DNA from: a virus | Taxonomy: Duplodnaviria > Caudoviricetes | Direction: 5' to 3' (one strand) | IMG/VR virus record: IMGVR_UViG_3300029818_000001 | Coordinates: 1 to 64,000 of that record | Length of the DNA: 64,000 nt | Part shown: positions 1-53,838 of the stretch, piece by piece | Position numbering within the stretch: position 1 is the first letter of the stretch | How the letters are laid out: every line of letters begins with the position of its first letter | Translations under genes and position numbers: made by a program | Notes under the pieces: generated by a model | What the model was told of the DNA's origin: nothing | Databases searched by the model: none | What the model saw: the letters and a program-made list of their open reading frames with translations, nothing else

Positions 1-127
1 TTATAACATAACAGAGATGTTATAACATAACAGAGATGTTATAACATAACAGAGATGTTATAACATAACAGAGATGTTATAACATAACAGAGATGTTATA
101 ACATAACAGAGATGTTATAACATAACA
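1..127. repeat. Perfect tandem repeat of TTATAACATAACAGAGATG (19 bp, 6 full copies + 13 nt), cut by window edge
   Basis: Read directly; junctions create the 12-bp palindrome ATGTTATAACAT; no spacers. Confidence 0.97.
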
Positions 128-637
128 CTCTCACGTCTAGCATAAAATCAACTCAATGTCAAATTTATTTCAGCGTTAAAAATTAAATTTGACAAACAGA
201 AAAACATCAATTTTTAAGCATTAAGAAAATTTGACGTTAAGTATTTTTTATGTTAGTTGATTCTTTAACGTAATTTTTTATTGACATTGTTTTTATTTTG
301 TGTCTCTTTTAAAATAACAGCGATTAATTACGTTTTTTAATTTAACGCCGTTTTTTAAAGCGTAAAATCGAAAATTAAGCGCGTTTTAAGCGACGATAAT
401 AAAAAAGCTATAGCAATACATTGCTTAAGTCGTTATCGTCGAAAATCGGCTTTCACGGCGCTTTTAACGGCATTGCTTGCCGGTATTGTTACCGGTTTTT
501 TACTATACTCACACGCGCGCTCTTATATACGCGCGGCAATAATCGGCACATTCGGCAAACATTGCCGATAAAATCAAAAAATAAATCGTTTAAAATCAAC
601 AAGTTAAGACTTTTTAACGTCAATTACGAAGATAAAC

Positions 638-665
638 TTGCGTTAAAAAGAAAAATCCGTATAAT
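638..665 (+). promoter_or_regulatory. Putative sigma70 promoter for the orphan gene at 821
   Basis: TTGCGT-16 bp-TATAAT upstream of first ORF. Confidence 0.5.
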
Positions 666-820
666 ACAAATCACCGCAGCGGAATGCGGTTTCAGAAGCC
701 GGACTGCTTCGCCGCTCTTTAACAATTTGTGCTTAAATCGGTTTCCGTATTCACTCGGATTAAAGTAACAATCGTAATAGCGAAAAAAATCAATAACTTA
801 TAACTTAACGGAAAAATATC

Positions 821-1405
821 ATGAATATATTTGACAAAATCGAAGCAGTTCAAGAGTTTAGAAAAACGCTTGATTATCAAGCGGTTGAGAATGAATCGGG
901 TGTCGGCATTGCCGCGGATCGATGTGATAAAAACCGCGTCAGCCGGTTGAAACGGCTAAAGCGGTTCGATTCTCTGCCGTTCGATCAACTCAGCTTTTTA
1001 GCTGAAAATGTCGACATTGATCAATTCGAGCGTGCTATATACGCTCAAGACAAAGTTAGACAATTCTTAAAATTCAGAGCGGGCGACCGCTCAGTCTACG
1101 GCGGCAATCGAGTAACCGGGTGTAACACGCAAAAGAAAAACAACGCTTTCTTAATGATAATTGACTACATTAGAAAGCAAGACGAACAAAGTATCGTTTT
1201 GTCAAGCACTTTTCATAAAAATTTATTAATGAGATACGGGCAACCGGCCGCTTCGGTCGGTGCTCAGTCGGGGAGCAACAACACGACACTAGAATGCTTT
1301 AAGTGCGCCGTGCCGCTTGATTCAGCGCGAACCGCTTACCGAATAGACGTTGAGCGCGTTAAAGCGCTCTTCGGTGAAACGTTCACCGATGTAAAAATAG
1401 TTTAA
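821..1405 (+). CDS. Hypothetical protein (194 aa, no Trp)
   Basis: Long ORF with ATG in AT-rich context downstream of promoter-like site; no recognisable motif. Confidence 0.75.
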   Translation: MNIFDKIEAVQEFRKTLDYQAVENESGVGIAADRCDKNRVSRLKRLKRFDSLPFDQLSFLAENVDIDQFERAIYAQDKVRQFLKFRAGDRSVYGGNRVTGCNTQKKNNAFLMIIDYIRKQDEQSIVLSSTFHKNLLMRYGQPAASVGAQSGSNNTTLECFKCAVPLDSARTAYRIDVERVKALFGETFTDVKIV

Positions 1406-1414
1406 CAATAATAA

Positions 1415-1432
1415 TAAGTTAGCCGTGACTTA
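1415..1432. promoter_or_regulatory. Operator-like palindrome copy TAAGTTA-GCCG-TGACTTA (inside 11-bp hairpin 1418-1445)
   Basis: One mismatch to TAAGTCA-N4-TGACTTA consensus. Confidence 0.6.
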
Positions 1433-1464
1433 GTTCACGGCTAACACTATCGGAGCATAAAATC

Positions 1465-1632
1465 ATGAAAAAAGAAGAGTTGAGACTTTACAAATCGTTA
1501 ACGAACGCAAAGCGCGCTAATAGCGCTTATCGTCGGCACGGTCGGCGCGTGTCCGAACCGTTTCGACATTACGTTATAGACAAACGCTTAAAAGAGTCGA
1601 ACCGCATACGATACGCGGTTATCGTCAAATAA
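1465..1632 (+). CDS. Small basic hypothetical protein (55 aa, MKKEELRLYKSL...), not in ORF track
   Basis: GGAG Shine-Dalgarno, ATG at 1465, TAA at 1630-1632, hairpins follow. Confidence 0.6.
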   Translation: MKKEELRLYKSLTNAKRANSAYRRHGRRVSEPFRHYVIDKRLKESNRIRYAVIVK

Positions 1633-1733
1633 CGCCGCTTAAAGCGGCGATAACAACAAAGCCGATAAATCTATCGGCTTTTCACTTAATAAGCCGTTAA
1701 CAGTGCTTAACGGCTTAATTTGCGGATCATATT

Positions 1734-1997
1734 ATGAACAGAGAAACTTTCAAGCGCGCATTTCGCGCGGTCCGATTGCTAATACAATCGGACAATGAAA
1801 TTGTCTGTATGACATACAGACATTATTTAGAGTTATCAGAGCAGAGCAACTCTGATGCTCTTTGTTGTTATCAAGATCGGCAATCGGTCTATGTAGCGCC
1901 GCTTCAATCGCGGTTGAATCGTTTCAAAGTGTTTAAAAAAATGAAAGCAACCGGCTTTCATGCCGGTGAGCGCTTTAGACCGGCTAACTTTATCTAA
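1734..1997 (+). CDS. Hypothetical protein (87 aa, no Trp)
   Basis: ATG ORF co-oriented with the two preceding genes. Confidence 0.55.
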   Translation: MNRETFKRAFRAVRLLIQSDNEIVCMTYRHYLELSEQSNSDALCCYQDRQSVYVAPLQSRLNRFKVFKKMKATGFHAGERFRPANFI

Positions 1998-2129
1998 AGC
2001 GACTAATGAGAATGATTCTCAACTAGACGGAATTAGTTGAGAATCATTGTCGTTTGAGAGTCATTCTCAATAGCGATAGTCTTAGAAATTTCGACTAAGT
2101 GCTCCCTCCCCACCCACCTTCAATCCACC

Positions 2130-2193
2130 TTCCAAAACACACTCTCCTCGCAGATATACCATTCCAAAACACACTCTCCTCGCAGATATACCA
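2130..2193. repeat. 32-bp perfect tandem duplication TTCCAAAACACACTCTCCTCGCAGATATACCA x2
   Basis: Read directly (2130-2161, 2162-2193). Confidence 0.95.
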
Positions 2194-2287
2194 TATTCGA
2201 TTTTCCATATATCCTTTCGACTTGATCTTCTCGCTCCTCTTAGATATACTTTCGCTAACATAAATTTCATGATTTATGTTCCGTTTC

Positions 2288-10912: not shown

Positions 10913-11683
10913 ATGTCTGATCAGCCCAACTCAACCACCAAAAACGCCTTCAAGGGCTTTAAAGGCTCTGCTGATCGCTCCGAGCAAAAGAAAGTCGAGG
11001 CTCGCGAAAAAGCGCATCAGCGCATCAAAAGGCGTGGCAATCCCGACGGTTTTAAAGCCGTCACGGAAGAGCAGATTAAGGCTCGCGCCGAATCTAAGAA
11101 AAAACCGAATCTTAAGCCGTCTCAGATCGCCGAAATGGAAGCGATGTGGGAATCCGGCGAGGTCACGCTAAAAGAGCTGGCAGAGCGCTTTAATCGCAGT
11201 CAGGATAATATCTCCAGACACATGACGCTGAACGGCGTCGTCAAGGGTGCCAAAGCCGAAGAATACTCTCGAATGATTAAGGAGAAAATCGCTCAGGAGT
11301 TGATGGGTGATGTCGGCGAACACGCTAAAAGAATTCGGCAAGCCAAAGATTACGCGTTAGGCCAAATTGATCTCATCAAGAAGTTGGCGGCTAACGAAAT
11401 CATCGGTGCCAAAAAGAAAAACCTCAATCTGAGCTCAACTCTGCCAGCTTTGCGAGCGCTTGACCAATATATGAAGGTGGTGTCGGGCTGTCGAAATGAA
11501 GAATACATTTTATTGGGCATCAAGGAGTTCGAAGAGAAGGTTGAGCAAGAAGATATCCCAGAGTTGATTGTCACGGAGTTGACAGGTGAAGAGATCGAGC
11601 GCATGAGACAGGAGCAGCGCGAGTTCGATCAGATGGTTGACGAAGCGGATACGGATGTCAACGAGATAGTGGATGAGTCATAA
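10913..11683 (+). CDS. Putative terminase small subunit (HTH)
   Basis: Position before terL; WESGEVTLKELAERF HTH-like segment; GAGAGG SD. Confidence 0.65.
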   Translation: MSDQPNSTTKNAFKGFKGSADRSEQKKVEAREKAHQRIKRRGNPDGFKAVTEEQIKARAESKKKPNLKPSQIAEMEAMWESGEVTLKELAERFNRSQDNISRHMTLNGVVKGAKAEEYSRMIKEKIAQELMGDVGEHAKRIRQAKDYALGQIDLIKKLAANEIIGAKKKNLNLSSTLPALRALDQYMKVVSGCRNEEYILLGIKEFEEKVEQEDIPELIVTELTGEEIERMRQEQREFDQMVDEADTDVNEIVDES

Positions 11684-14189
11684 CAGGATAAGACTGCACC
11701 CCGGTCAGATGACCGTTTGGCAATCCCCCGCGCGGTTTCGCGTGGTGGTGGCAGGGCGCAGATGGGGCAAATGCTGCAAGGCCGGAACGCTCATAGCTAT
11801 GAGCGATGGCAGCTATAAGCGCATTGAAGACGTGGCCTCTGGCGATCAGGTGTTAACCATAAGCGAGAAGACGTATAGTCTTGAGTCGAAGGCCGTCAAG
11901 CATGTTCACGACAATGGCGTTAAGGATATCGTTCGCATCGTAACGAGGTCTGGCAAGAGACTCGAAGTAACGCCGAACCACCCCATTCTAGTCAACAATG
12001 TATGGACAGAGGCTAAGGACGTCAAGCTCGGTGATCTAGCGGCAATACCTAGAGCCACAGTGTTTGGCGTTGATGAAGTGCGCTCTTGCGAGATTGACTT
12101 CTTGGCTATTTGGCTTGCGGAAGGCGACAGTAGCGGATATACGAATCAAACGCCGGAAATCATTGATGTAATGACGAAGGCGTGTGGCGAGATGGGTGTT
12201 GAATTTGTAGATTCGGCAACTGGCGATCGAAAAGCCGGTCTGTATTGGCGCTGGAGAGGCGTTAAGCCTAGAAGTAACGCATGTATAGACTTGTTGAAAA
12301 AACATGGTCTACGTCATAAAAATTCCAAGACAAAGTTCATTCCAGATTGCATATTTAGACTGCCAAAGAGTCAACTTGCGCGTTTTCTAAATTTGTTCAT
12401 TGCTTGCGATGGGTCTATAAATCGCCGGAGTAAAAATACATGGGCCGTTGAGATCGCTTTGGCAAATGAGAAAATGACTGAGCAGATTGCTGACTTATTT
12501 TTGAAGTTTGGCATTAGAGGTCAAATTTCAAAGAAGGTTCATAAGGCGAAAAGTTCGGTCAGTGGCGACAACTTCATCTCTTGGCGATTTATTGTGTCAG
12601 ATAGTAAGTCACTAATTACTTTTTGCGATCAAATAGGCGCATTGAGTAAAGAAAGTAAAGTCGCTAGAGCGAAATTGGCCGCGTCTGCATCAAGAGGTAG
12701 CTGTAATTCTTATTTGCCTATATCTCACGATGATTTTATCGAGCATCTAAGCTATAAGCCCGTGTTTAAAGGTAAGTATGGCGGCTACAACTGCGTTGTT
12801 TCGCGCGATTTACCAGAGGCTTTGAGAGAGAGATTGAATGGCTGGCGCAAGCAGACACCAAGTAGAGTTTCCGAGTATCGCTATTCATTCATCAGAGAGT
12901 TTGGCGATGGCTATTTTGATCCAATTGCAGATGGGGATTTTGCGTGGGATGAGATATCAGAGATCGAGTGTGTCGATAAGGATCAAACCTATGATTTGAC
13001 GGTTGATGGCAATCATAACTTTATCGCAAATGGTCTGGTTACGCATAATACCGCACTGTCGAAAGCCTTAATCATCCGCTACGCCAAAATGCCGCGCCGC
13101 AAGGTCTGGTATGTTGCTCCAACCTACCGCATGGCGAAGCAGATCATGTGGCAAGATTTGCAGGACACGATACCTCCGAGATGGGTTCGTAAAATGAATG
13201 ATACCTCGATGACCATTTGGCTCATCAATGGATCAGTCATTGAGCTTAAAGGCGCAGATAATCCCGATACTTTGCGCGGCGTAGGTTTGGATTTCGTGGT
13301 GTTGGACGAATATCAGGATATGTCCGAAGACACCTGGCATCGCGTCTTGCGTCCAACGATGGCAGATACGCGCGGTCATGCGCTTTTCATAGGTTCGCCA
13401 AAAAGTTATAACTTACTGCATGATGCTTATATTCTAGGTCAAGACCCGATTCGTGTCGCAAAGCGACAATGGCAGTCGTGGCAGTTTCCCACCATTACCA
13501 GTCCATTTATTCCCGTCGAAGAGATTGAGCAAGCTCGGCGCGATATGGATTCGAAATCGTTTGCTCAAGAGTTTTTGGCTTCGTTCGAAACAATGGCTGG
13601 TCGAGTTTATTACGCCTTCGATCGTCACACCCACGTCAAAAAGTGCGAATTCAACCCCAATTTGCCAATTTGGATAGGTCAGGATTTTAATATCGACCCA
13701 ATGTCTTCGATCATTATGCAGCCGCAGTTGGATGGTAGCATTTGGGTGGTGGATGAGATTGTCTTATTTGGCTCAAATACCGAAGAGAGCGTCGACGAGA
13801 TCGAGCGAAGGTATTATCGCTATCGTAACAATGTCACCATATACCCGGACCCTGCCGGAACTCAGAGACAACACGCCAGAGGCGAAACCGATCTGGATAT
13901 CTTCAGAGAGCGTGGCTTTCGACGCATTAAGCATCGCGCGCAACACCCTCGGGTGGCTGATCGCGTCAACTGCTTTAATAAGATGCTGAGATCGACAGAC
14001 GGCACGATAAGACTGTATGTGGACCCAAGTTGCAAAGGCTTAATTGAGTCGCTGGAGCAGACGATTTATAAAAAAGGCTCCAGGGATATTGACAAATCCA
14101 TTAGCGTCGATCATGCAACAGACGCCGCTGGCTACTGCCTAGAAGTGGAGTTTTCGCGCAAAGTCAAGATTTTGGGCGTCAGTATTTAA
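11673..14189 (+). CDS. terL: Terminase large subunit containing an intein
   Basis: AGRRWGK|T Walker A, LRGVGLDFVVLDEY Walker B, GQDFNIDPM nuclease, DHATDA. Confidence 0.95.
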   Translation: MSHNRIRLHPGQMTVWQSPARFRVVVAGRRWGKCCKAGTLIAMSDGSYKRIEDVASGDQVLTISEKTYSLESKAVKHVHDNGVKDIVRIVTRSGKRLEVTPNHPILVNNVWTEAKDVKLGDLAAIPRATVFGVDEVRSCEIDFLAIWLAEGDSSGYTNQTPEIIDVMTKACGEMGVEFVDSATGDRKAGLYWRWRGVKPRSNACIDLLKKHGLRHKNSKTKFIPDCIFRLPKSQLARFLNLFIACDGSINRRSKNTWAVEIALANEKMTEQIADLFLKFGIRGQISKKVHKAKSSVSGDNFISWRFIVSDSKSLITFCDQIGALSKESKVARAKLAASASRGSCNSYLPISHDDFIEHLSYKPVFKGKYGGYNCVVSRDLPEALRERLNGWRKQTPSRVSEYRYSFIREFGDGYFDPIADGDFAWDEISEIECVDKDQTYDLTVDGNHNFIANGLVTHNTALSKALIIRYAKMPRRKVWYVAPTYRMAKQIMWQDLQDTIPPRWVRKMNDTSMTIWLINGSVIELKGADNPDTLRGVGLDFVVLDEYQDMSEDTWHRVLRPTMADTRGHALFIGSPKSYNLLHDAYILGQDPIRVAKRQWQSWQFPTITSPFIPVEEIEQARRDMDSKSFAQEFLASFETMAGRVYYAFDRHTHVKKCEFNPNLPIWIGQDFNIDPMSSIIMQPQLDGSIWVVDEIVLFGSNTEESVDEIERRYYRYRNNVTIYPDPAGTQRQHARGETDLDIFRERGFRRIKHRAQHPRVADRVNCFNKMLRSTDGTIRLYVDPSCKGLIESLEQTIYKKGSRDIDKSISVDHATDAAGYCLEVEFSRKVKILGVSI
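11772..13049 (+). mobile_element. Intein (426 aa) with LAGLIDADG homing endonuclease
   Basis: Starts CCKAGT, TPNH block B, WLAEGD and FIACDGS motifs, ends VTHN followed by Thr +1. Confidence 0.93.
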
Positions 14190-39156: not shown

Positions 39157-40686
39157 ATGGCCGGTATCAGACTAAAGCGCGGCACGAAGGCACAGATTGA
39201 TGCAGCCAAGGCCGCATCGGGACTTGCTGAAAGTGAGCCTTATCTGATTACTGACGAAGGTCGCATTGCTATCGGCACCGGAGCGGCAGACTATAAGCCT
39301 GTCGCCATGGGGGATGTTGATATTGTTGTCTCCAACGCAGCCCCAGCTCAGCCGTATGACGGTCTTGTTTGGATAGACACCGAGTCAAACCCCGTTGGCG
39401 ATTCGGCCTATCAAGTGGCTGTTAATAACGGGTTTGTTGGGACTGAGCAGGATTGGCTCGCGTCATTGCAGGGTGACGCTGGGCCTCAAGGAGATACCGG
39501 TGCCGATGGGTCTCAAGGACCTCAAGGGATACAGGGTGAAGCTGGACCTCAAGGAGATACAGGGCTGCAAGGTCCTCAAGGGATACAGGGTGAAGCTGGA
39601 CCTCAAGGAGATACAGGGCTGCAAGGGCCTCAAGGGATACAGGGTGAACCCGGCATTTCAGCCTATCAGGTTGCGGTTAATGGTGGCTTTGTTGGAACTG
39701 AGCAGGAGTGGCTGGACTCTTTAGTTGGACCTCCCGGCGAAGCGATGCTTTACGACCCAGCGACAGCAGCCAGCACCTTCTTGTGGCTTGTGGATATTGA
39801 GCGCACCGAACAGCAAATTATCGATTGGCTTCCCACCACAGCGGTCGGTGGTCTATCCTCTTTGCGTAATGACTCAGTGCTGTTGGCTGATTTGGCAGGT
39901 AGCTCTATTGGCATGAAGAATGTCGCCAAGGATGCCGATTTGGTAAATAGCTTGGTTTGTGATAATTCAGTAGCTTGTGCCGTGTTTGTAAACTCATCCA
40001 TCGCTAGAGCTGAGTTATTCGAATCTTCCGTCGCTAGAGCTGAGTTATTCGAATCTTCCGTCGCTATGGCAGAGATTATTGGCTCGACTGCTGCTAGAAA
40101 TGACATATATGGTATCTCTGCGGCTAGAGCTGACTTGTTTATATCTACTGTAGGTATGATTGAGTTTGCGTCATCAAGTCTCGCGATGGCCGAATTGGCA
40201 GCGTCCTCTACAATTCGAGCTGAATTGTTCGCATCTTCTTTGGCGATGGCGAAGGTCGCGGAAAGCTCTCATTTGCTCGTCTTCTTTGACAGCGCAACCT
40301 CACGCTTAGAGATGTTTGGCTCTGCTATCGTCGAGAAGGCATTTAGAGACTCCACAAATGCGATGACGCTGATCGATAGTATTGCTACCAATGTGTCGGC
40401 ACTCACTACCAACCAAAACTATGCAAGTTTGACTAGCTCCAAGGTCTTCGCGACATCTGTAAACACGGGCACAACCGCGATATCGGGTGAGAGAGGGGCA
40501 CGATACTTTAATCACTTACAGGATGGTGTGACAAATTCGACGATGGTGGTGTCTAACAATCCATCTCCAGGAAACCCTTGGGCATTGTGCGCTGGAAGAA
40601 TGTTTGAAGGCTTACAAGTGATGGCTAGATCAGGTAGCACCACTTCAACGGCAACTCGCACAGCTCGCGTCGTGGTAATGGAGTAA
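39157..40686 (+). CDS. Fibre protein with Mtd-N-like head, collagen G-X-Y repeats and decapeptide repeats
   Basis: IRLKRGT..EPYLITD; SAYQVAV..GF.GTE..WL.SL.G flanking GPQG repeats; ARAELFESSV repeats. Confidence 0.75.
   Translation: MAGIRLKRGTKAQIDAAKAASGLAESEPYLITDEGRIAIGTGAADYKPVAMGDVDIVVSNAAPAQPYDGLVWIDTESNPVGDSAYQVAVNNGFVGTEQDWLASLQGDAGPQGDTGADGSQGPQGIQGEAGPQGDTGLQGPQGIQGEAGPQGDTGLQGPQGIQGEPGISAYQVAVNGGFVGTEQEWLDSLVGPPGEAMLYDPATAASTFLWLVDIERTEQQIIDWLPTTAVGGLSSLRNDSVLLADLAGSSIGMKNVAKDADLVNSLVCDNSVACAVFVNSSIARAELFESSVARAELFESSVAMAEIIGSTAARNDIYGISAARADLFISTVGMIEFASSSLAMAELAASSTIRAELFASSLAMAKVAESSHLLVFFDSATSRLEMFGSAIVEKAFRDSTNAMTLIDSIATNVSALTTNQNYASLTSSKVFATSVNTGTTAISGERGARYFNHLQDGVTNSTMVVSNNPSPGNPWALCAGRMFEGLQVMARSGSTTSTATRTARVVVME
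39520..39648 (+). repeat. 54-bp tandem repeat x2.4 (collagen-like coding)
   Basis: Units start 39520, 39574, 39628. Confidence 0.9.
40001..40066 (+). repeat. 30-bp tandem repeat x2.2
   Basis: TCGCTAGAGCTGAGTTATTCGAATCTTCCG. Confidence 0.9.
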
Positions 40687-42328: not shown

Positions 42329-43180
42329 ATGGTATTTATACCGCGTTGGGAGAGGCATAAGCAGCGATTGTCGAGGGACTACACGGTCAATTGGGGGCAT
42401 CAATTGACCGAACACATACATAGCATTCTCCTTCCTCACTCTGATTTGAGGCTATATAACCGCGAGCGCGAAGTTAACCGCTCATCATTCTCAGGTGTGA
42501 GTGTGTTTGATGAGTCAATCTATTTAAATAACAGTATTCTTGCATATGATGGTCTCACCATTCCATCGACAAACAATCTAGCGCTATTAGCAGTAATAGA
42601 TACAAAAGACTTATCAGGTGGCGGGCAGATTGCGGCACGAGATAATTTCGCATTAAGTCGTCGTAATTATCAATTTCGAATAGGTTCCTTTAATGGGGAT
42701 AGTGTTAGCATCTCTACAATACACTGGCCTGGAGTTGTCAGTAATCTTCTAGGCTCCTGTGGACGAGAGAGTGGTGTGGTTGCCATCTCCAACAAAATAG
42801 GGGCAGTAAGCGAGGGCGCTGTCAATGGGGTTTTGAATTACGGAGTGGCTCCGTCTTCTTTTTCAAATAATAATCCACAGCTTTGTATCGGAGTTAGAAG
42901 AGAGAGTTCGAACTGGGTCGAGCGACCCCTTGGTTTGATTCTGAATATGTTTGTAGAGTTTTCGTCTGCGCTGACTACCGATGAAGTGTTGGCGTTGTCA
43001 GAGGCTCCCTACCAAATACTAAAACCCCGCGTCATCTACTTCGACATGGGTGCAACCGCAGCATTCAAATCCGCCCCTATCAAATATCACAATAGCGCTA
43101 ATCTAATCACGCCTGTCGCCAAGGTGTGGGATGGCGCAGCGTCGAGCTGGAAAAACAGCACGATTAAGGTAAAGGGGTAG
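42329..43180 (+). CDS. Putative LamG/concanavalin A-like lectin-fold protein
   Basis: Beta-rich; PQLCIG...ALTTDEVLALSEAPYQIL C-terminal pattern of LamG-like phage proteins. Confidence 0.5.
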   Translation: MVFIPRWERHKQRLSRDYTVNWGHQLTEHIHSILLPHSDLRLYNREREVNRSSFSGVSVFDESIYLNNSILAYDGLTIPSTNNLALLAVIDTKDLSGGGQIAARDNFALSRRNYQFRIGSFNGDSVSISTIHWPGVVSNLLGSCGRESGVVAISNKIGAVSEGAVNGVLNYGVAPSSFSNNNPQLCIGVRRESSNWVERPLGLILNMFVEFSSALTTDEVLALSEAPYQILKPRVIYFDMGATAAFKSAPIKYHNSANLITPVAKVWDGAASSWKNSTIKVKG

Positions 43181-43222
43181 GGAGATTGAGTCGCTTCCTG
43201 TATCTAAACACTTAACTGTTAA

Positions 43223-43966
43223 ATGGAATTCAATCAAATGGAATTCAACGTGAAAATCAAGCGAGAAAAGAGACAAAATAGAAAGCGCAAATTAAGCGCC
43301 CCTGAGCCGTTTTTCGAAGAAATAGTGCTCTCGGTAGATAAGAAGCATTTGGAGCCGATACGCGCTATCAATGAAGCTCAGGGGCACTATTTAAGCTCAA
43401 TTCGACAGAATGTTATCACATTCGGGGTCGGTCCCGCTGGGACGGGGAAGAGTTATTGCGCGGGAGGCTATGCGGCAGATAAGTTGAGAGATAAGGAGGT
43501 TGATAAGCTGATCATCACTCGCCCCTGCGTGGAAGCAGGCGAGTCGTTAGGCTTTCTTCCCGGCGAGTTGGAGGATAAGTTCGCACCCTATATCGACCCC
43601 TTCCGCGAAATTCTCAATGAGCGATTGGGCAAAAGCTTTGTTGACTATCTAATCAAGCACAAGCGCATCGATGCTAAACCTCTAGCCTACATGCGAGGCA
43701 ATACCTTTAAGAATTGCATCGTTATTTTAGACGAAGCGCAAAACACCACGCCGACGCAAATGAAGTTGTTTTTAACGCGAATAGGCGAGAACTGTAAGGT
43801 AATCATCGACGGCGACATTCAGCAAAAGGATATCCGGCAACAAAGTGGTTTAGCCGATGCTATCGATCGTCTAAGTCAGATTAAAAACGTGGGTGTCGTT
43901 AATTTTGACGCCGACGATATTGTTCGCTCCAGAATCGTCAAGGATATTATTAAAGCCTACGGATAA
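43223..43966 (+). CDS. phoH: PhoH-family ATPase
   Basis: GPAGTGKS, ITRP.VEAGE.LGFLPG, YMRGNTF, DEAQN, GDIQQ.D. Confidence 0.96.
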   Translation: MEFNQMEFNVKIKREKRQNRKRKLSAPEPFFEEIVLSVDKKHLEPIRAINEAQGHYLSSIRQNVITFGVGPAGTGKSYCAGGYAADKLRDKEVDKLIITRPCVEAGESLGFLPGELEDKFAPYIDPFREILNERLGKSFVDYLIKHKRIDAKPLAYMRGNTFKNCIVILDEAQNTTPTQMKLFLTRIGENCKVIIDGDIQQKDIRQQSGLADAIDRLSQIKNVGVVNFDADDIVRSRIVKDIIKAYG

Positions 43967-49499: not shown

Positions 49500-49833
49500 G
49501 CGGCACGTTTTTGGCACACTGGTGGCACAGTGCCAAGCGAAATAAGAGGATTTTTGAGTAATTTTTAGAGTGTGCCAGAAGTTGCGATTTTAGCTTTAAC
49601 TGTTTGATTTTTTTAATGCTTTTTATGGTGCCGAGGAGAGGACTTGAACCTCCACGCCCTTGCGAGCACTAGCACCTGAAGCTAGCGTGTCTACCAATTT
49701 CACCACCTCGGCAAAGGTGTGCTGTATCAGCGAAGTGAGCTAATAAAATCAACAACTTGGGTTAGATCGTCTTGACTGATATAGCCGGAGGCTAGTGACA
49801 GTCAAAAGTAGCTCTGGCACACTCTCGGCACAG
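49500..49833. other. attP-like region: TGGCACA(C/G) arm-type repeats, two IHF sites and a tRNA core
   Basis: Arms 49512, 49523, 49570(rc), 49815, 49826; WATCAANNNNTTR at 49597-49609(rc) and 49747-49759. Confidence 0.75.
49626..49712 (-). tRNA. tRNA-Leu (anticodon CAG), full length with CCA
   Basis: GCCGAGG...TGGTAGAC D-loop, CTAGC-TTCAGGT-GCTAG, long variable arm, GGTTCAAGTCC, CCTCGGCACCA. Confidence 0.97.
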
Positions 49834-49844
49834 TGAGAAAAATT

Positions 49845-50801
49845 ATGGCGACAATTAGAAAGCGGTCGGGCAAGTGGCACGTTCAAGTTAGAAAGTTGGG
49901 TCAGTCAATAACCAGAAGTTTTACTAGCAAGAACGATGCCGAAAGATGGGCTAGACAGACAGAAAGCGAAATTGAGCAAGATCGCTTTGTGCCAAAAAGA
50001 AAATCGGTCAACTTGTCATTTTTACTTGACAAGTGGCGAGACGAAGTGTTGATAAATCTAAAAAGCCACTCTGTCGATAAATATAAGGTGGAGCTTATTA
50101 AGCGCAGTCTTGGCGAATACTCGCTGAATGAGATCACCAGTGAGCGTCTTGCTGCATATCGGGACGAGCGCGCGAAAGAGGTTTCAGCACAAACCGTCAA
50201 GCATGAGTTGGGAATTATCCGGCGAGCTATGAACTGCGGCGTTGAATGGGGCTTCAACAATAGCGTCCCCTATGTTAAATCACCCTCGCTGAAGGGTCAG
50301 GGTCGCAAGCGCAGATTAAACGATAATGAATCTGCCAAGCTTGAGGCGACTGTGGATGAATACATGCACAACATCATCATCTTTCTGGAGGAGACCGCCA
50401 TGCGTCGCGGGGAGTTGGCAAAAATTAAACTGTCCGATGTCAGTATCGATGAGCGGTCTATTCATTTGGGCGACACCAAGAATGGCGATGACCGAGTGGT
50501 CCCGGTAAGTAAAAGAGGTATGACAGCTTTGCGTTATCTGATGGACAACGCAAAGGGAGAGAAATTGTTAAATTACTCGAAAGGCTGGTTGTCGAGAAAA
50601 TTCACACGATATAGAAAGAGCGCAGGCATAGAAGATTTTCGACTGCATGACTTTCGACATGAAGGCGCTTCGCTGCTATTCGAAAAGGGCTTGAACGTGA
50701 TGGAGGTTGGGGCAATTACAGGTCACAAAGATTTGGCATCACTTAGTCGATACACTCATATCAACACCAGACACTTATTGAAAAAGCTGGACGAGAAGTG
50801 A
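49845..50801 (+). CDS. int: Tyrosine integrase
   Basis: MATIRKR.GKW arm-binding N-terminus; AMRRGE, TKNG, HDFRH, GH, RYTH catalytic set. Confidence 0.95.
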   Translation: MATIRKRSGKWHVQVRKLGQSITRSFTSKNDAERWARQTESEIEQDRFVPKRKSVNLSFLLDKWRDEVLINLKSHSVDKYKVELIKRSLGEYSLNEITSERLAAYRDERAKEVSAQTVKHELGIIRRAMNCGVEWGFNNSVPYVKSPSLKGQGRKRRLNDNESAKLEATVDEYMHNIIIFLEETAMRRGELAKIKLSDVSIDERSIHLGDTKNGDDRVVPVSKRGMTALRYLMDNAKGEKLLNYSKGWLSRKFTRYRKSAGIEDFRLHDFRHEGASLLFEKGLNVMEVGAITGHKDLASLSRYTHINTRHLLKKLDEK

Positions 50802-51924: not shown

Positions 51925-53838
51925 ATGAAAAAAGACGTTGAGGTATTAAGAGAGAGTATCCGCGCAATCACGCAGATATTGGCGCAAGACAACATACAGG
52001 TTACGCAAACAGGTGTGGACGCATATACGGTGGCTGACGAAACAGGCAGACCGGAGCTGATTAATCTACCTTATTTGCCGGATGACGCCTCGGATGAATT
52101 GATTAGTGCGGTTCAAGGTTATCTCGATCACGAAGTAGGTCACGCTTTGTTTTCTGATTTCAGCGTGGCGTCTAAAGCTAAGAGATCTGGCAGCGTTGTC
52201 GCTCAGTTTCACAATATCGTCGAAGACACCTTCGTCGAGCGCAAGATGATTGGCAAATTTAGAGGCTGTAGTTACAACTTGGGTAGCGTCGGTGCCTTTT
52301 ATCTTTCGCGCTTTGTCGATAAGAAGATCGAGGAGGGTGATGAGAAGACGCTCGCGTCAGTATTAGTGGTTCCAGCAATACGGGCGTTCTCAGGTCAGCA
52401 GATATTTATTGATTACATGGCTGATAAGTGGCACATCATCGCCGATTTCCGTAAGATAGTTGAGCCAATGAGTGCGGAAATTGCAAGCTTAAGTTCGTCA
52501 CAGGAATGTCTCGACATGGCGATTAAAATTGTCGAAGCGACGAATAAGAAGAAAGAGGAGAAGAAAGAGGAGAAGAAAGAGGAGAAGAAAGAGGAGAAGA
52601 AAGAGGAGAAGAAAAAGGAGAAGAAAAAGGAGAAGAAAGGGGAGTCTTCGGAAGAAAGCGAGGAAGGAGAAGAAGAGAAAGACAAAGACGAAAGTGAAGA
52701 AAGTGAAGAAAGTGAAGAAAGTGAAGAAAGTGAAGAAAGTGAAGAAAGTGAAGAAAGTGAAGAAAGTGAAGGAGAGGGAGACGAAAGTGAAGGAGACGGA
52801 GAAGGGGAAGGAGAAGAAGGAGGCGAAAGTGAAGGAGAGTCGGACTTGAGGCTTATCTTCACAAATATGGAGCATAGTGATATCACGGAGGGCGTCAATG
52901 AAGCGCTCTCGACAGAAGTGGTGAATACAGCGAAAGGCTCGCAATATGTTAAGTTCACAGATGAGTATGACGAGGTGAAGCCGCTCGATAAAGCGTATTG
53001 GTCAAGCGAAAAGCAGGCTCAAGAATTTGAAGATACTGTGTCACACATAACGGCACCTATTCAAAAAGATATCGAACGAGCCATTTGTGCGCGTTCGATA
53101 TCTACCTGGTCCAATGGGCATCGCAAAGGTAGACTGCATGGCTCGTCGCTGTCTCGACTGACGATTGGTGACGATCGTATCTTTAGAAAGAAGGTCGTTA
53201 ATAACAGTAAAGATGTGGTGGCCAGCTTGGTAATCGACTGTAGCGGATCAATGACTGGCAATAGAATGAAGTTGGCCTGTCAAGCCGCGATGACACTTTC
53301 AATGGTATTGGACCGCCTAAAGATCAGTCATGAAGTTTGTGGCTTCACAACGAAAAGCATGCCGCATGAAGTGATTGTAAAAATGGAAAAGGATCGTAAA
53401 GATCGCGACATTTATTATGCGCGACAAGAGGCGATCGCAATGCCAATATTTAAAGCGTTCGGCGAGCGCTTGACGATGGCTACAAAGCAGAAAATCACAG
53501 GAGCAGGCGTTGGTAATATAGATATGTGCAATAACTGCGATGGTGAGTCAGTTGAAATGGCCGCAAGACGCTTAATGTCTCAGAAAGAGGCTCGCAAGAT
53601 TATGATCGTGCTATCGGATGGGGCGCCAGCCTGTTGGGGCGGCGGCGACTTTAGAAGACATTTAAAGGATACAGTTAGCGGCTTGGAAAGGGTCATGGAT
53701 GTCGTAGGCATTGGTATTCAATCGCGAGAGGTGGAGAGATACTACTCTAAAAACATCTATGTTGATGATGTTAGCGATTTGCCACTCGTGGTGGCAAAGC
53801 AGTTAAAAGCAATGCTTTTGGCTGGCGCTAACAAATAG
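51925..53838 (+). CDS. cobT: CobT-like VWA-domain protein
   Basis: GYLDHEVGH, NIVED..VER, DCSGSM MIDAS, IVLSDGAP. Confidence 0.85.
   Translation: MKKDVEVLRESIRAITQILAQDNIQVTQTGVDAYTVADETGRPELINLPYLPDDASDELISAVQGYLDHEVGHALFSDFSVASKAKRSGSVVAQFHNIVEDTFVERKMIGKFRGCSYNLGSVGAFYLSRFVDKKIEEGDEKTLASVLVVPAIRAFSGQQIFIDYMADKWHIIADFRKIVEPMSAEIASLSSSQECLDMAIKIVEATNKKKEEKKEEKKEEKKEEKKEEKKKEKKKEKKGESSEESEEGEEEKDKDESEESEESEESEESEESEESEESEESEGEGDESEGDGEGEGEEGGESEGESDLRLIFTNMEHSDITEGVNEALSTEVVNTAKGSQYVKFTDEYDEVKPLDKAYWSSEKQAQEFEDTVSHITAPIQKDIERAICARSISTWSNGHRKGRLHGSSLSRLTIGDDRIFRKKVVNNSKDVVASLVIDCSGSMTGNRMKLACQAAMTLSMVLDRLKISHEVCGFTTKSMPHEVIVKMEKDRKDRDIYYARQEAIAMPIFKAFGERLTMATKQKITGAGVGNIDMCNNCDGESVEMAARRLMSQKEARKIMIVLSDGAPACWGGGDFRRHLKDTVSGLERVMDVVGIGIQSREVERYYSKNIYVDDVSDLPLVVAKQLKAMLLAGANK
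52549..52770 (+). repeat. Purine-rich microsatellite linker: AAGAAAGAGGAG x5 (+2 variants) and GAAAGTGAA x9
   Basis: Read directly; encodes (KKEE)n and (ESE)n. Confidence 0.93.

Follow-up and report, generated by a model that had tools for sequence, protein, structure and literature searches.

Why would a phage keep one very short word entirely out of a single stretch of its genome? This question is raised by the left end of a groundwater phage genome, the virus record IMGVR_UViG_3300029818_000001 (Duplodnaviria; Caudoviricetes). The stretch analyzed here, called the window, comprises the left 64 kb of this 74,575-bp IMG/VR record, whose completeness is 68% according to CheckV. A preliminary description made from the letters of the window had reported that the trinucleotides CCA, CCT, AGG and TGG (CCW and its complement WGG, W being A or T) are missing from its first 2.1 kb. 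We found this motif-free zone, in the following also called the island, to be real biology. It recurs at the same place in related phages and probably lies, judging from synteny, at the edge of a long direct terminal repeat. As an explanation we tentatively favor, with a probability of about 35%, an end-proximal and probably leading module that is hidden from a nuclease with a short recognition motif.

A trinucleotide absent from both strands

Computed counts for positions 1–2103 were zero for each of CCA, CCT, AGG and TGG on both strands, as had been read off by eye. All 34 CC dinucleotides belong to CCG, and runs of G always follow a C (50 CGG, 6 CGGG). From base composition about 96 sites of the CCW class would be expected, which agrees with the earlier rough estimate of about 100. 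A first-order Markov model based on the zone's own dinucleotides predicts about 45 sites and the density of the rest of the window about 115, giving a range of 45–115 across models against none observed. The ban also stops as abruptly as described: the zone free of CCA/CCT/AGG/TGG spans 1–2104 on both strands, the first CCW of the window is found at position 2105 and 12 CCW sites lie in the first 100 bp beyond. Outside the zone the triplets are used freely, the largest gap between CCW/WGG sites in the whole 74,575-bp record being 176 bp. Among all 2–4-mers scanned over this record none besides CCW/WGG has a comparable gap. The zone has a GC content of 38.5% versus 47.5% in the rest, CCG/CGG are enriched 2.4-fold in it, and CCGG and GCGC are frequent.

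The ban extends through coding sequence. In the three open reading frames (ORFs) of the zone (821–1405, 1465–1632 and 1734–1997) Trp does not occur and all six Pro codons are CCG, in line with the preliminary description, while 13 of 13 Gly codons are preceded by C or CG. Back-translation of the three ORFs with the codon usage of the genome gave 23.1, 5.8 and 9.2 expected CCW/WGG sites, respectively, with minima of 12, 1 and 3 in 2000 trials. The observed value of zero was never reached, demonstrating that the ban is enforced at silent sites. The ribosome sites in the zone read CGGAG, CGGAA and CGGAT, the sole Shine-Dalgarno-like form that is permitted, so both codon preference and the usual GGAGG ribosome site are overridden. 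Based on the codon choice and the allowed form of the ribosome sites we conclude that the rule acts on DNA letters and not on proteins.

Since the zone starts at a contig end, with position 1 falling within a tandem repeat of 19 bp at which the IMG/VR contig is interrupted, an assembly artefact or a chimeric end had to be considered. The same phage is present in the ENA contig k141_69636 (L006; 99,228 bp). In this contig the zone is internal (L006 9253–11285, 2032 bp) and is preceded on its left by ordinary CCW-rich DNA with about 17 small genes on the same strand. Logan contigs from four groundwater runs show the same left flank joined to the zone. Identical sequence in these independent assemblies, with both flanks joined, refutes the artefact, and the feature is also found in cultured, fully sequenced phages; the probability left to this explanation is negligible. 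Since the zone is internal in the ENA and Logan contigs, the end of the record is an assembly break, and the label "terminal" given to the zone in the preliminary description is not borne out by the record.

Conservation of the ban and its protein family

Whether related genomes carry the same zone had been named as a check in the preliminary description, and the answer is positive: bans at the syntenic position are found in four metagenomic loci as well as in cultured Pseudomonas and Rhizobium phages. The metagenomic loci were compared using the helicase as an anchor. They share a layout in which a helicase/dihydrofolate reductase (DHFR) block is followed by an ORF of about 200 aa and then by up to about 1 kb without called genes, and all four carry a motif-free zone at that spot. 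Locus L008 lacks CCA/TGG over 1686 bp with 2 CCT/AGG remaining, L010 lacks CCA/TGG over 1669 bp with 1 CCT/AGG remaining, L012 lacks any CCW over 1305 bp, and L011 lacks only CCA/TGG over 1106 bp. The zones of the cultured phages are free of all CC/GG over 1137 bp in nickie (a Pseudomonas Nickievirus), 1083 bp in Nican01, 1115 bp in phiK7B1, 851 bp in B1VFA and 1279 bp in V1VFA-S; in RHEph10 five CC/GG sites are left in 1.15 kb of DNA with 50% GC. The breadth of the ban thus varies among close relatives, covering CCW, CCA or all CC/GG.

Scans of the complete nickie and RHEph10 genomes single out one extreme outlier each, the island, whose gap/mean ratio reaches 149 in nickie and 76 in RHEph10. 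The corresponding maxima are only 15–23 in SSU5, in ANB28 and over the initial 50 kb of T5. SSU5 and ANB28 have no island. The three Nickievirus islands differ from each other at 155–217 of about 1080 aligned sites without a single CC/GG gained, whereas random placement of the 217 substitutions between nickie and Nican01 created 42.7 CC/GG on average and never fewer than 27. The ban has been retained through 14–20% sequence divergence. Among the Nickieviruses the island still matches at the nucleotide level but its flanks do not. The islands of nickie and B1VFA resemble that of the present phage in having CC/GG-dense, repeat-bearing flanks. The ban is conserved and, as the substitutions between the Nickievirus islands indicate, it is actively maintained, most likely by strong purifying selection. 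A presence/absence screen found no ORF common to the island-bearing phages yet missing from SSU5 and ANB28, although the power of this screen is low and the record of the present phage incomplete. SSU5 contains no CCATGG and only 5 CCWWGG in 103 kb, and ANB28 no CCGCGG in 108 kb, a pattern that in both cases resembles the usual avoidance of restriction sites across a genome.

The zone is furthermore home to a protein family. The 194-aa protein encoded at 821–1405 matches no Pfam family and a word-based protein search with it returned only the self-match; relatives emerged by profile search alone. A profile built from this protein and four syntenic relatives finds 53 cluster representatives, including the window protein with E = 1.2e-70 (its own sequence is part of the profile) and seven others with E ≤ 1e-30. 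Of 43 aligned members, 27 match both PHROG 4202 and PHROG 9272, neither of which has an annotated function. Trp is absent in 45 of the 53 representatives, and three lack Trp, Pro and Gly altogether while keeping the family motifs. By eye the same motifs are seen in B1VFA_061, which lies inside the CC/GG-free zone of B1VFA. The island gene is inverted in the Rhizobium phages. RHEph10 has a clear homologue (E = 1.7e-19) about 2 kb outside its island, and within the island a 204-aa ORF with one Gly, no Pro or Trp and a weak family resemblance. Since the homologue is located outside the island, the ban appears to be tied to the place more than to one gene. This homologue, a family member of 230 aa, is encoded on the same strand as the annotated gp103 of RHEph10 but in another frame, the annotated frame being the wrong one (L018, record 96255–96944).

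The AlphaFold2 (AF2) model of the 194-aa protein is confident, with a predicted local distance difference test score (pLDDT) of 89.5. In it the N-terminal region forms a hairpin of helices and the C-terminal region resembles a winged helix. Foldseek returned no match for the model at E ≤ 0.001. The best VIA-align match is the KITE protein JetB with a Z of 7.2, which is below a trustworthy level; further weak fold matches comprise generic winged-helix regulators and one Rep chain at rank 20. Atlas matches to DUF4194/MksE (TM 0.41–0.43) are too weak to assign a function, and nothing significant was found by sequence search in the PDB. The predicted fold thus weakly suggests a winged-helix/KITE-like protein. 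None of the three zone ORFs has a Pfam match or a PHROG match with a function, and no pre-early functions of the A1/A2/dmp type were found among them.

These data bear on the proposal, also made in the preliminary description, that a mutational process targets CC. A localized process of this kind, for example deamination at CC in transiently single-stranded end DNA, could erode the motif without selection, and both the reduced GC content of the zone and the strand symmetry of the depletion would agree with it. However, the count is exactly zero and the borders are sharp to the base; CCG/CGG are enriched rather than eroded; ribosome sites persist as CGGA, the form that the rule allows; the protein family has been conserved and its fold is predicted with confidence; and close relatives are not alike in how broad a ban they have. 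We therefore consider this process highly improbable.

As to the phage itself, its genome encodes portal, capsid, tape measure and an intein-bearing large terminase, the replication proteins DnaB, DnaG and Pol III alpha, and NAD ligase, CobT/CobS-like proteins, PhoH, a gp32-like protein, DHFR and an integrase. Pol III alpha is 42–44% identical to its counterparts in Rhizobium phage RHEph10, Pseudomonas phage nickie and Stenotrophomonas phages and 35–37% identical to those of SSU5-like phage-plasmids. The nearest relative of the helicase (83%) is located on a contig binned with a Methylomicrobium metagenome-assembled genome (MAG). The phage is best explained as a siphovirus of about 100–110 kb belonging to the SSU5/Nickievirus/RHEph10 supergroup. 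Its large terminase (838 aa, window 11673–14189) has orthologues in the relatives with the Pfam domains Intein_splicing and LAGLIDADG_3, indicating an intein with a homing endonuclease in the gene; the helicase of one relative (P0015, 866 aa) is likewise intein-bearing. A tyrosine integrase is encoded at window 49833–50801. The 99-kb ENA contig ends at about window 49,719, just upstream of this gene, which may mark attP or a prophage junction. In relatives, a gene of the Tad2-like (anti-Thoeris) family lies between the ABC ATPase and the terminase region (L008 7437–7727, L012 7130–7618). A purine-only low-complexity stretch at window 52540–52860 encodes KKEE/ESEE repeats within the CobT-like protein (51925–53838) and explains gaps of 310 bp for AT, TA and CA.

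Anatomy of the island and its probable place on the chromosome

The island begins with an array of 19-bp tandem repeats on the plus strand (unit TTATAACATAACAGAGATG; 1–133), of which the record, breaking inside the array, shows at least six copies and a partial one. In the longer contig the array has only two copies and the zone measures 2032 bp. Unitig depths of 55–61 and 102–120 for the array versus about 15 for the island suggest 4–8 copies. The array is followed by an AT-rich leader without a convincing gene (134–820, plus strand). It contains a promoter-like TTGCGT-N16-TATAAT (638–665, plus strand) and a doubtful 115-aa ORF with a TTG start proposed by the ENA gene caller (421–768, plus strand); sigma-70 promoter-like sites are not enriched in the zone (6 vs 7.1 in shuffles). 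Downstream of the gene for the 194-aa protein (plus strand, PHROGs 4202/9272 family) a perfect hairpin with an 11-bp stem is located at 1418–1445. Next come an ORF for a basic 55-aa protein with CGGAG upstream (1465–1632, plus strand), three successive hairpins with GC stems (1633–1722) and an 87-aa ORF (1734–1997, plus strand); no relatives were found for either ORF. Large inverted repeats with arms of 20–21 nt (2003–2073) close this hairpin-rich 3' half. The border element (2104–2249, plus strand) consists of a C-rich tract, in which the 12 CCW of the first 100 bp are all on the plus strand, then two perfect 32-bp direct repeats (2130–2193) and a third, partial copy (2234–2249).

Terminator-like sites number 20 in the zone versus 3.0 ± 1.9 in shuffles. 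Folding z-scores are −11.9 for 1400–2103 and −4.05 for 130–820; in 300-nt windows they range from −1.4 to −7.6 inside the zone and from −1.5 to +0.5 outside. When shuffles preserve trinucleotides, z remains between −3.4 and −5.6 in the 3' half but drops to between −1.4 and −2.9 in the 5' half, where some of the excess of hairpins is lost. An Rfam search of the zone gave chance-level matches only, and a nucleotide search against GenBank phages gave no match. An iteron-type replicon would combine iterons with an AT-rich region and an adjacent initiator of a Rep family; the zone has the 19-bp tandem array and an AT-rich stretch, and the 194-aa protein matches no Rep family. A 35-nt element occurs at 1842–1876 inside the zone and, 86% identical, at 2766–2800 outside. 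Past this repeat the outside copy seems, from ORF translation, to enter CCA-bearing sequence; the inside copy does not.

Where on the virion chromosome does the island lie? Physical ends have been described for relatives: B1VFA has fixed ends with a direct terminal repeat of 3,605 bp and V1VFA-S a direct terminal repeat of 3,939 bp, the latter length being derived from coverage (PMC12509600), and Nican01 was classed as "DTR (long)" (PMC11256456). For these three phages no repeat coordinates are published, and their records do not start at the ends. The B1VFA record begins in nucleotide-metabolism genes, so its origin is not the physical end. None of the GenBank relatives carries the island twice, and the repeat is therefore directly visible in no record. 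We mapped B1VFA base by base onto V1VFA-S and searched for 3,605-bp windows with an image of 3,939 ± 12 bp. Genome-wide only two families of windows qualify. The first ends inside a 1541-aa tape-measure ORF. The second reaches from 39,631–39,809 to 43,235–43,413 with an image of 3,940 bp; both of its ends are non-coding, and the B1VFA island (42,409–43,260) is located at its helicase-side edge. Words common to the two presumed repeat borders are at most 9 bp long and uninformative.

Transferred to the present phage by synteny, this placement would put the end of the repeat at about window 2104–2194, from where the repeat would extend to the left across the island and into the early genes. Provided that the placement is correct, the virion chromosome would finish with one copy of the island, which would make up its last 2 kb or so. 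Read depth in two groundwater runs shows a step, with 14.6–15.2 for the island contig and 15.7–15.8 for the 899-bp left contig versus 9.8–10.2 for the adjoining contig of 33–37 kb, the Logan unitig depth being one mean per contig. This step fits a repeat covering the island. The Logan contigs showed neither joints nor variants, and among public runs no RNA dataset was listed as containing the sequence. Unitigs over 2133–2194, past the first CCWs, keep about the depth of the island per copy.

The abutment of island and presumed repeat border could also point to genome packaging. A nuclease that makes the ends, that is the terminase or a partner, might be active only near head-full and read a very short motif of the CC type; the last 1–2 kb would then be motif-free and followed by a motif-dense tract. 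In agreement with this, the ban ends abruptly in a tract of 12 CCW per 100 bp, the flanks in nickie and B1VFA are likewise very CC/GG-rich, and the island makes up 0.7–1.8% of the genome length. The ban tracks position and not gene orientation, as seen from the inverted gene in the Rhizobium phages, and the clear homologue of RHEph10 is located outside its island. A reader on the side of the phage would also explain why the motif differs between lineages. On the other hand, terminases are not known to have a specificity of 2–3 bp, and the repeat borders of T5 lack such a zone. Moreover, the depth of the unitigs over 2133–2194 indicates that the cut would not be at the first CCW, and no gene was found that is common to the island-bearing phages but missing from SSU5 and ANB28. 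We regard a role in packaging as unlikely.

Candidate readers and known systems

The DNA beside the island is rich in palindromes that contain the banned word. In the 9.2 kb upstream of the zone (L006 1–9250) CCWWGG, mostly AAGCCATGGCTT-like, occurs 26 times, about 3.4-fold above expectation, and 24 of the 26 sites are intergenic among small early genes. The 74.5-kb record contains 23 such sites versus 63 expected, an about 2.7-fold under-representation. The upstream sites are probably an operator or promoter element of the small early gene set. Beside the islands of L006, L008 and L010 no palindromic hexamer is enriched as much as CCATGG. In RHEph10 it is the one that clusters most strongly, next to the island, and CCGCGG clusters adjoin the island of nickie; L011 and L012 cluster other hexamers. 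SSU5 and ANB28 show no clusters of CC..GG palindromes.

CCW is the exact half-site of CCWWGG, and CCG is tolerated in the present phage but banned where CCGCGG is the clustered site. The island might therefore be avoiding a binding protein: a phage protein would recognize the CC..GG palindromes in the neighboring early intergenic regions, and the island would have to lose even half-sites, which would protect it at all times from being bound, silenced or spread over. The clustering of CC..GG hexamers by the islands of L006, L008, L010, RHEph10 and nickie, the intergenic position of the upstream sites, their scarcity in the record and the predicted winged-helix-like fold of the island protein speak for this possibility. 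It is countered by RHEph10, which clusters CCATGG yet bans all CC/GG, and by the different hexamers of L011 and L012. Regulators are also not known to demand the removal of every 3-bp half-site, coding sequence included. Avoidance of binding seems to us decidedly unlikely.

The ban itself gives two hints to the nature of its reader. Its strand symmetry points to a reader of double-stranded DNA, and its price, the loss of entire amino acids, suggests that every single site is heavily penalized, as it would be by cutting. The end-proximal module hidden from a nuclease, which we favor, would comprise the repeat array, the AT-rich leader, the winged-helix-like protein of about 200 aa, the two tiny ORFs and the hairpin cluster. 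It would be located at the edge of a long direct terminal repeat, with one copy ending the virion chromosome. Purifying selection would purge a motif of 2–3 bp, CCW here and CCA or all CC/GG in relatives, because a DNA-cutting activity needing only that motif would act while this DNA is exposed alone, most likely as the leading end at entry. Either a defence of the host or the phage's own nuclease could be the reader; that a host enzyme would recognize a site of just 2 bp seems improbable. The preliminary description had likewise proposed that first-entering DNA evades a CCW reader. Its argument from the end of the record falls with the assembly break, but the proposal stands as the best reading on new grounds, namely the fixed ends with repeats in relatives and the bookkeeping of lengths in B1VFA.

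Several points weigh against this explanation. Were entry to start from the opposite end, early genes rich in CCW, which belong to the same repeat, would precede the island. The island genes point towards the presumed end here and away from it in B1VFA, and SSU5 and ANB28 manage without an island. To our knowledge no host nuclease has a 2–3-bp site, and selection per site of a protospacer-adjacent motif (PAM) seems too weak to strip all Gly, Pro and Trp from a protein. The placement of the repeat is arithmetic with a 1-bp misfit and uses a V1VFA-S length taken from coverage. Finally, a second strain could also explain the depth step, with one mean per contig.

A possible, if doubtful, variant assigns the reader to the phage: a nuclease of its own, virion-borne, early or terminase-linked, would read CC, CCW or CCA and be licensed at the chromosome end, the banned word co-evolving with it throughout a large supergroup of phages. 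If this were true, an end-proximal 1–2 kb would be written in a restricted DNA alphabet, with proteins losing Trp, or Trp, Pro and Gly, and this would represent a principle governing genome ends that has not been described before. Viruses do use cutters of 2–3-base specificity to destroy host DNA, as exemplified by Nt.CviPII of chlorella virus (CCD) and endonucleases II and IV of T4, and their own DNA then needs protection. Those viruses protect it by modifying bases throughout the genome, a difference from the local ban seen here, and no gene for such a nuclease was identified in this phage.

Modification has been invoked for the zone as well. Here the phage would modify its genome at CC-type motifs and keep the zone unmodified, for example for host proteins on arrival, and a banned motif that varies between lineages, as the specificity of an enzyme would, is in keeping with it. 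The 7-deazaguanine modification by phage DpdA is comparable in being a lineage-dependent chemistry on G that is specific for sequence context. However, no TGT/DpdA (PF01702) was detected in the seven records searched (G000, RHEph10, ANB28, SSU5, B1VFA, V1VFA-S and Nican01), the record of the present phage being only about 68% complete. C5 and N6/N4 methyltransferases (PF00145, PF01555) were not detected in G000, RHEph10, ANB28 and SSU5, among which the complete RHEph10 genome has an island. The preliminary description had connected the sparing of the zone with a ParB/ABC/GNAT cluster. This connection is not supported, as the ParB-ParB-ABC cluster is also present in SSU5, which lacks the island, and no known modification enzyme was found in the records searched. 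We consider an exemption from modification very unlikely.

Whatever its reader, the ban implies an activity that recognizes a very short sequence and is confined to this portion of the chromosome. We know of no such activity for this widespread group, which includes enterobacterial phage-plasmids and phages of plant-associated bacteria, and literature searches found no published description of motif-free or PAM-free phage zones. The cultured members nickie, Nican01 and B1VFA make the ban directly testable. Once identified, the reader might prove to be a novel defence or a novel nuclease for host takeover, or it might disclose an unfamiliar route of genome-end formation.

Among known systems the closest parallel is the first-step-transfer (FST, pre-early) DNA of T5 and BF23, which is located inside the long terminal repeat together with its injection stop region and in T5 lacks certain restriction sites. 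T5 is also a siphovirus with a long direct terminal repeat, a trait demonstrated for the relatives and presumed for the present phage, and both have a small early-looking transcription unit at the repeat with repeats and palindromes clustered at its inner edge. In contrast to the island, the first 50 kb of T5 show no ban on any 2–4-mer (top gap ratio 15.7). Here an absolute ban on 2–3 bp covers 1–2 kb and not a whole repeat, and it dictates amino-acid content. Homologues of A1/A2/dmp are absent from the zone, and entry in two steps, with a pause until the first genes are expressed, is a feature of T5. The logic would be shared with the leading end of T7, where the first DNA to reach the cell carries promoters and the first gene, 0.3/ocr, and is free of cut sites. 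T7 avoids long type I sites by placement and not by purging a trinucleotide. The island protein of the present phage is neither acidic nor Ocr-like, and its genes are directed towards the presumed end.

CRISPR systems offer words of the right length, since CC is the type I-F PAM, NGG the type II-A PAM and CCW a type I-B PAM, and spacers are reportedly captured preferentially from the first-injected end (Modell et al., 2017). The present phage does not avoid CC or NGG PAMs, its zone retaining 34 CCG and 50 CGG, while the zones of nickie, B1VFA and V1VFA-S contain no CC/GG and thus neither PAM. A type I-B-like PAM would agree with the absence of CCW from the zone; the contig of a relative lies in a Methylomicrobium MAG. 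The banned word is a non-palindromic trinucleotide and not a site of 4–8 bp as in classical restriction-site avoidance. With phage avoidance of restriction sites and PAMs the island shares the removal of a short motif from both strands. Known motif avoidance, however, is a statistical trend that concerns sites of 4–8 bp and extends over the genome, whereas here a word of 2–3 bp is banned absolutely and locally, within a conserved zone of 1–2 kb.

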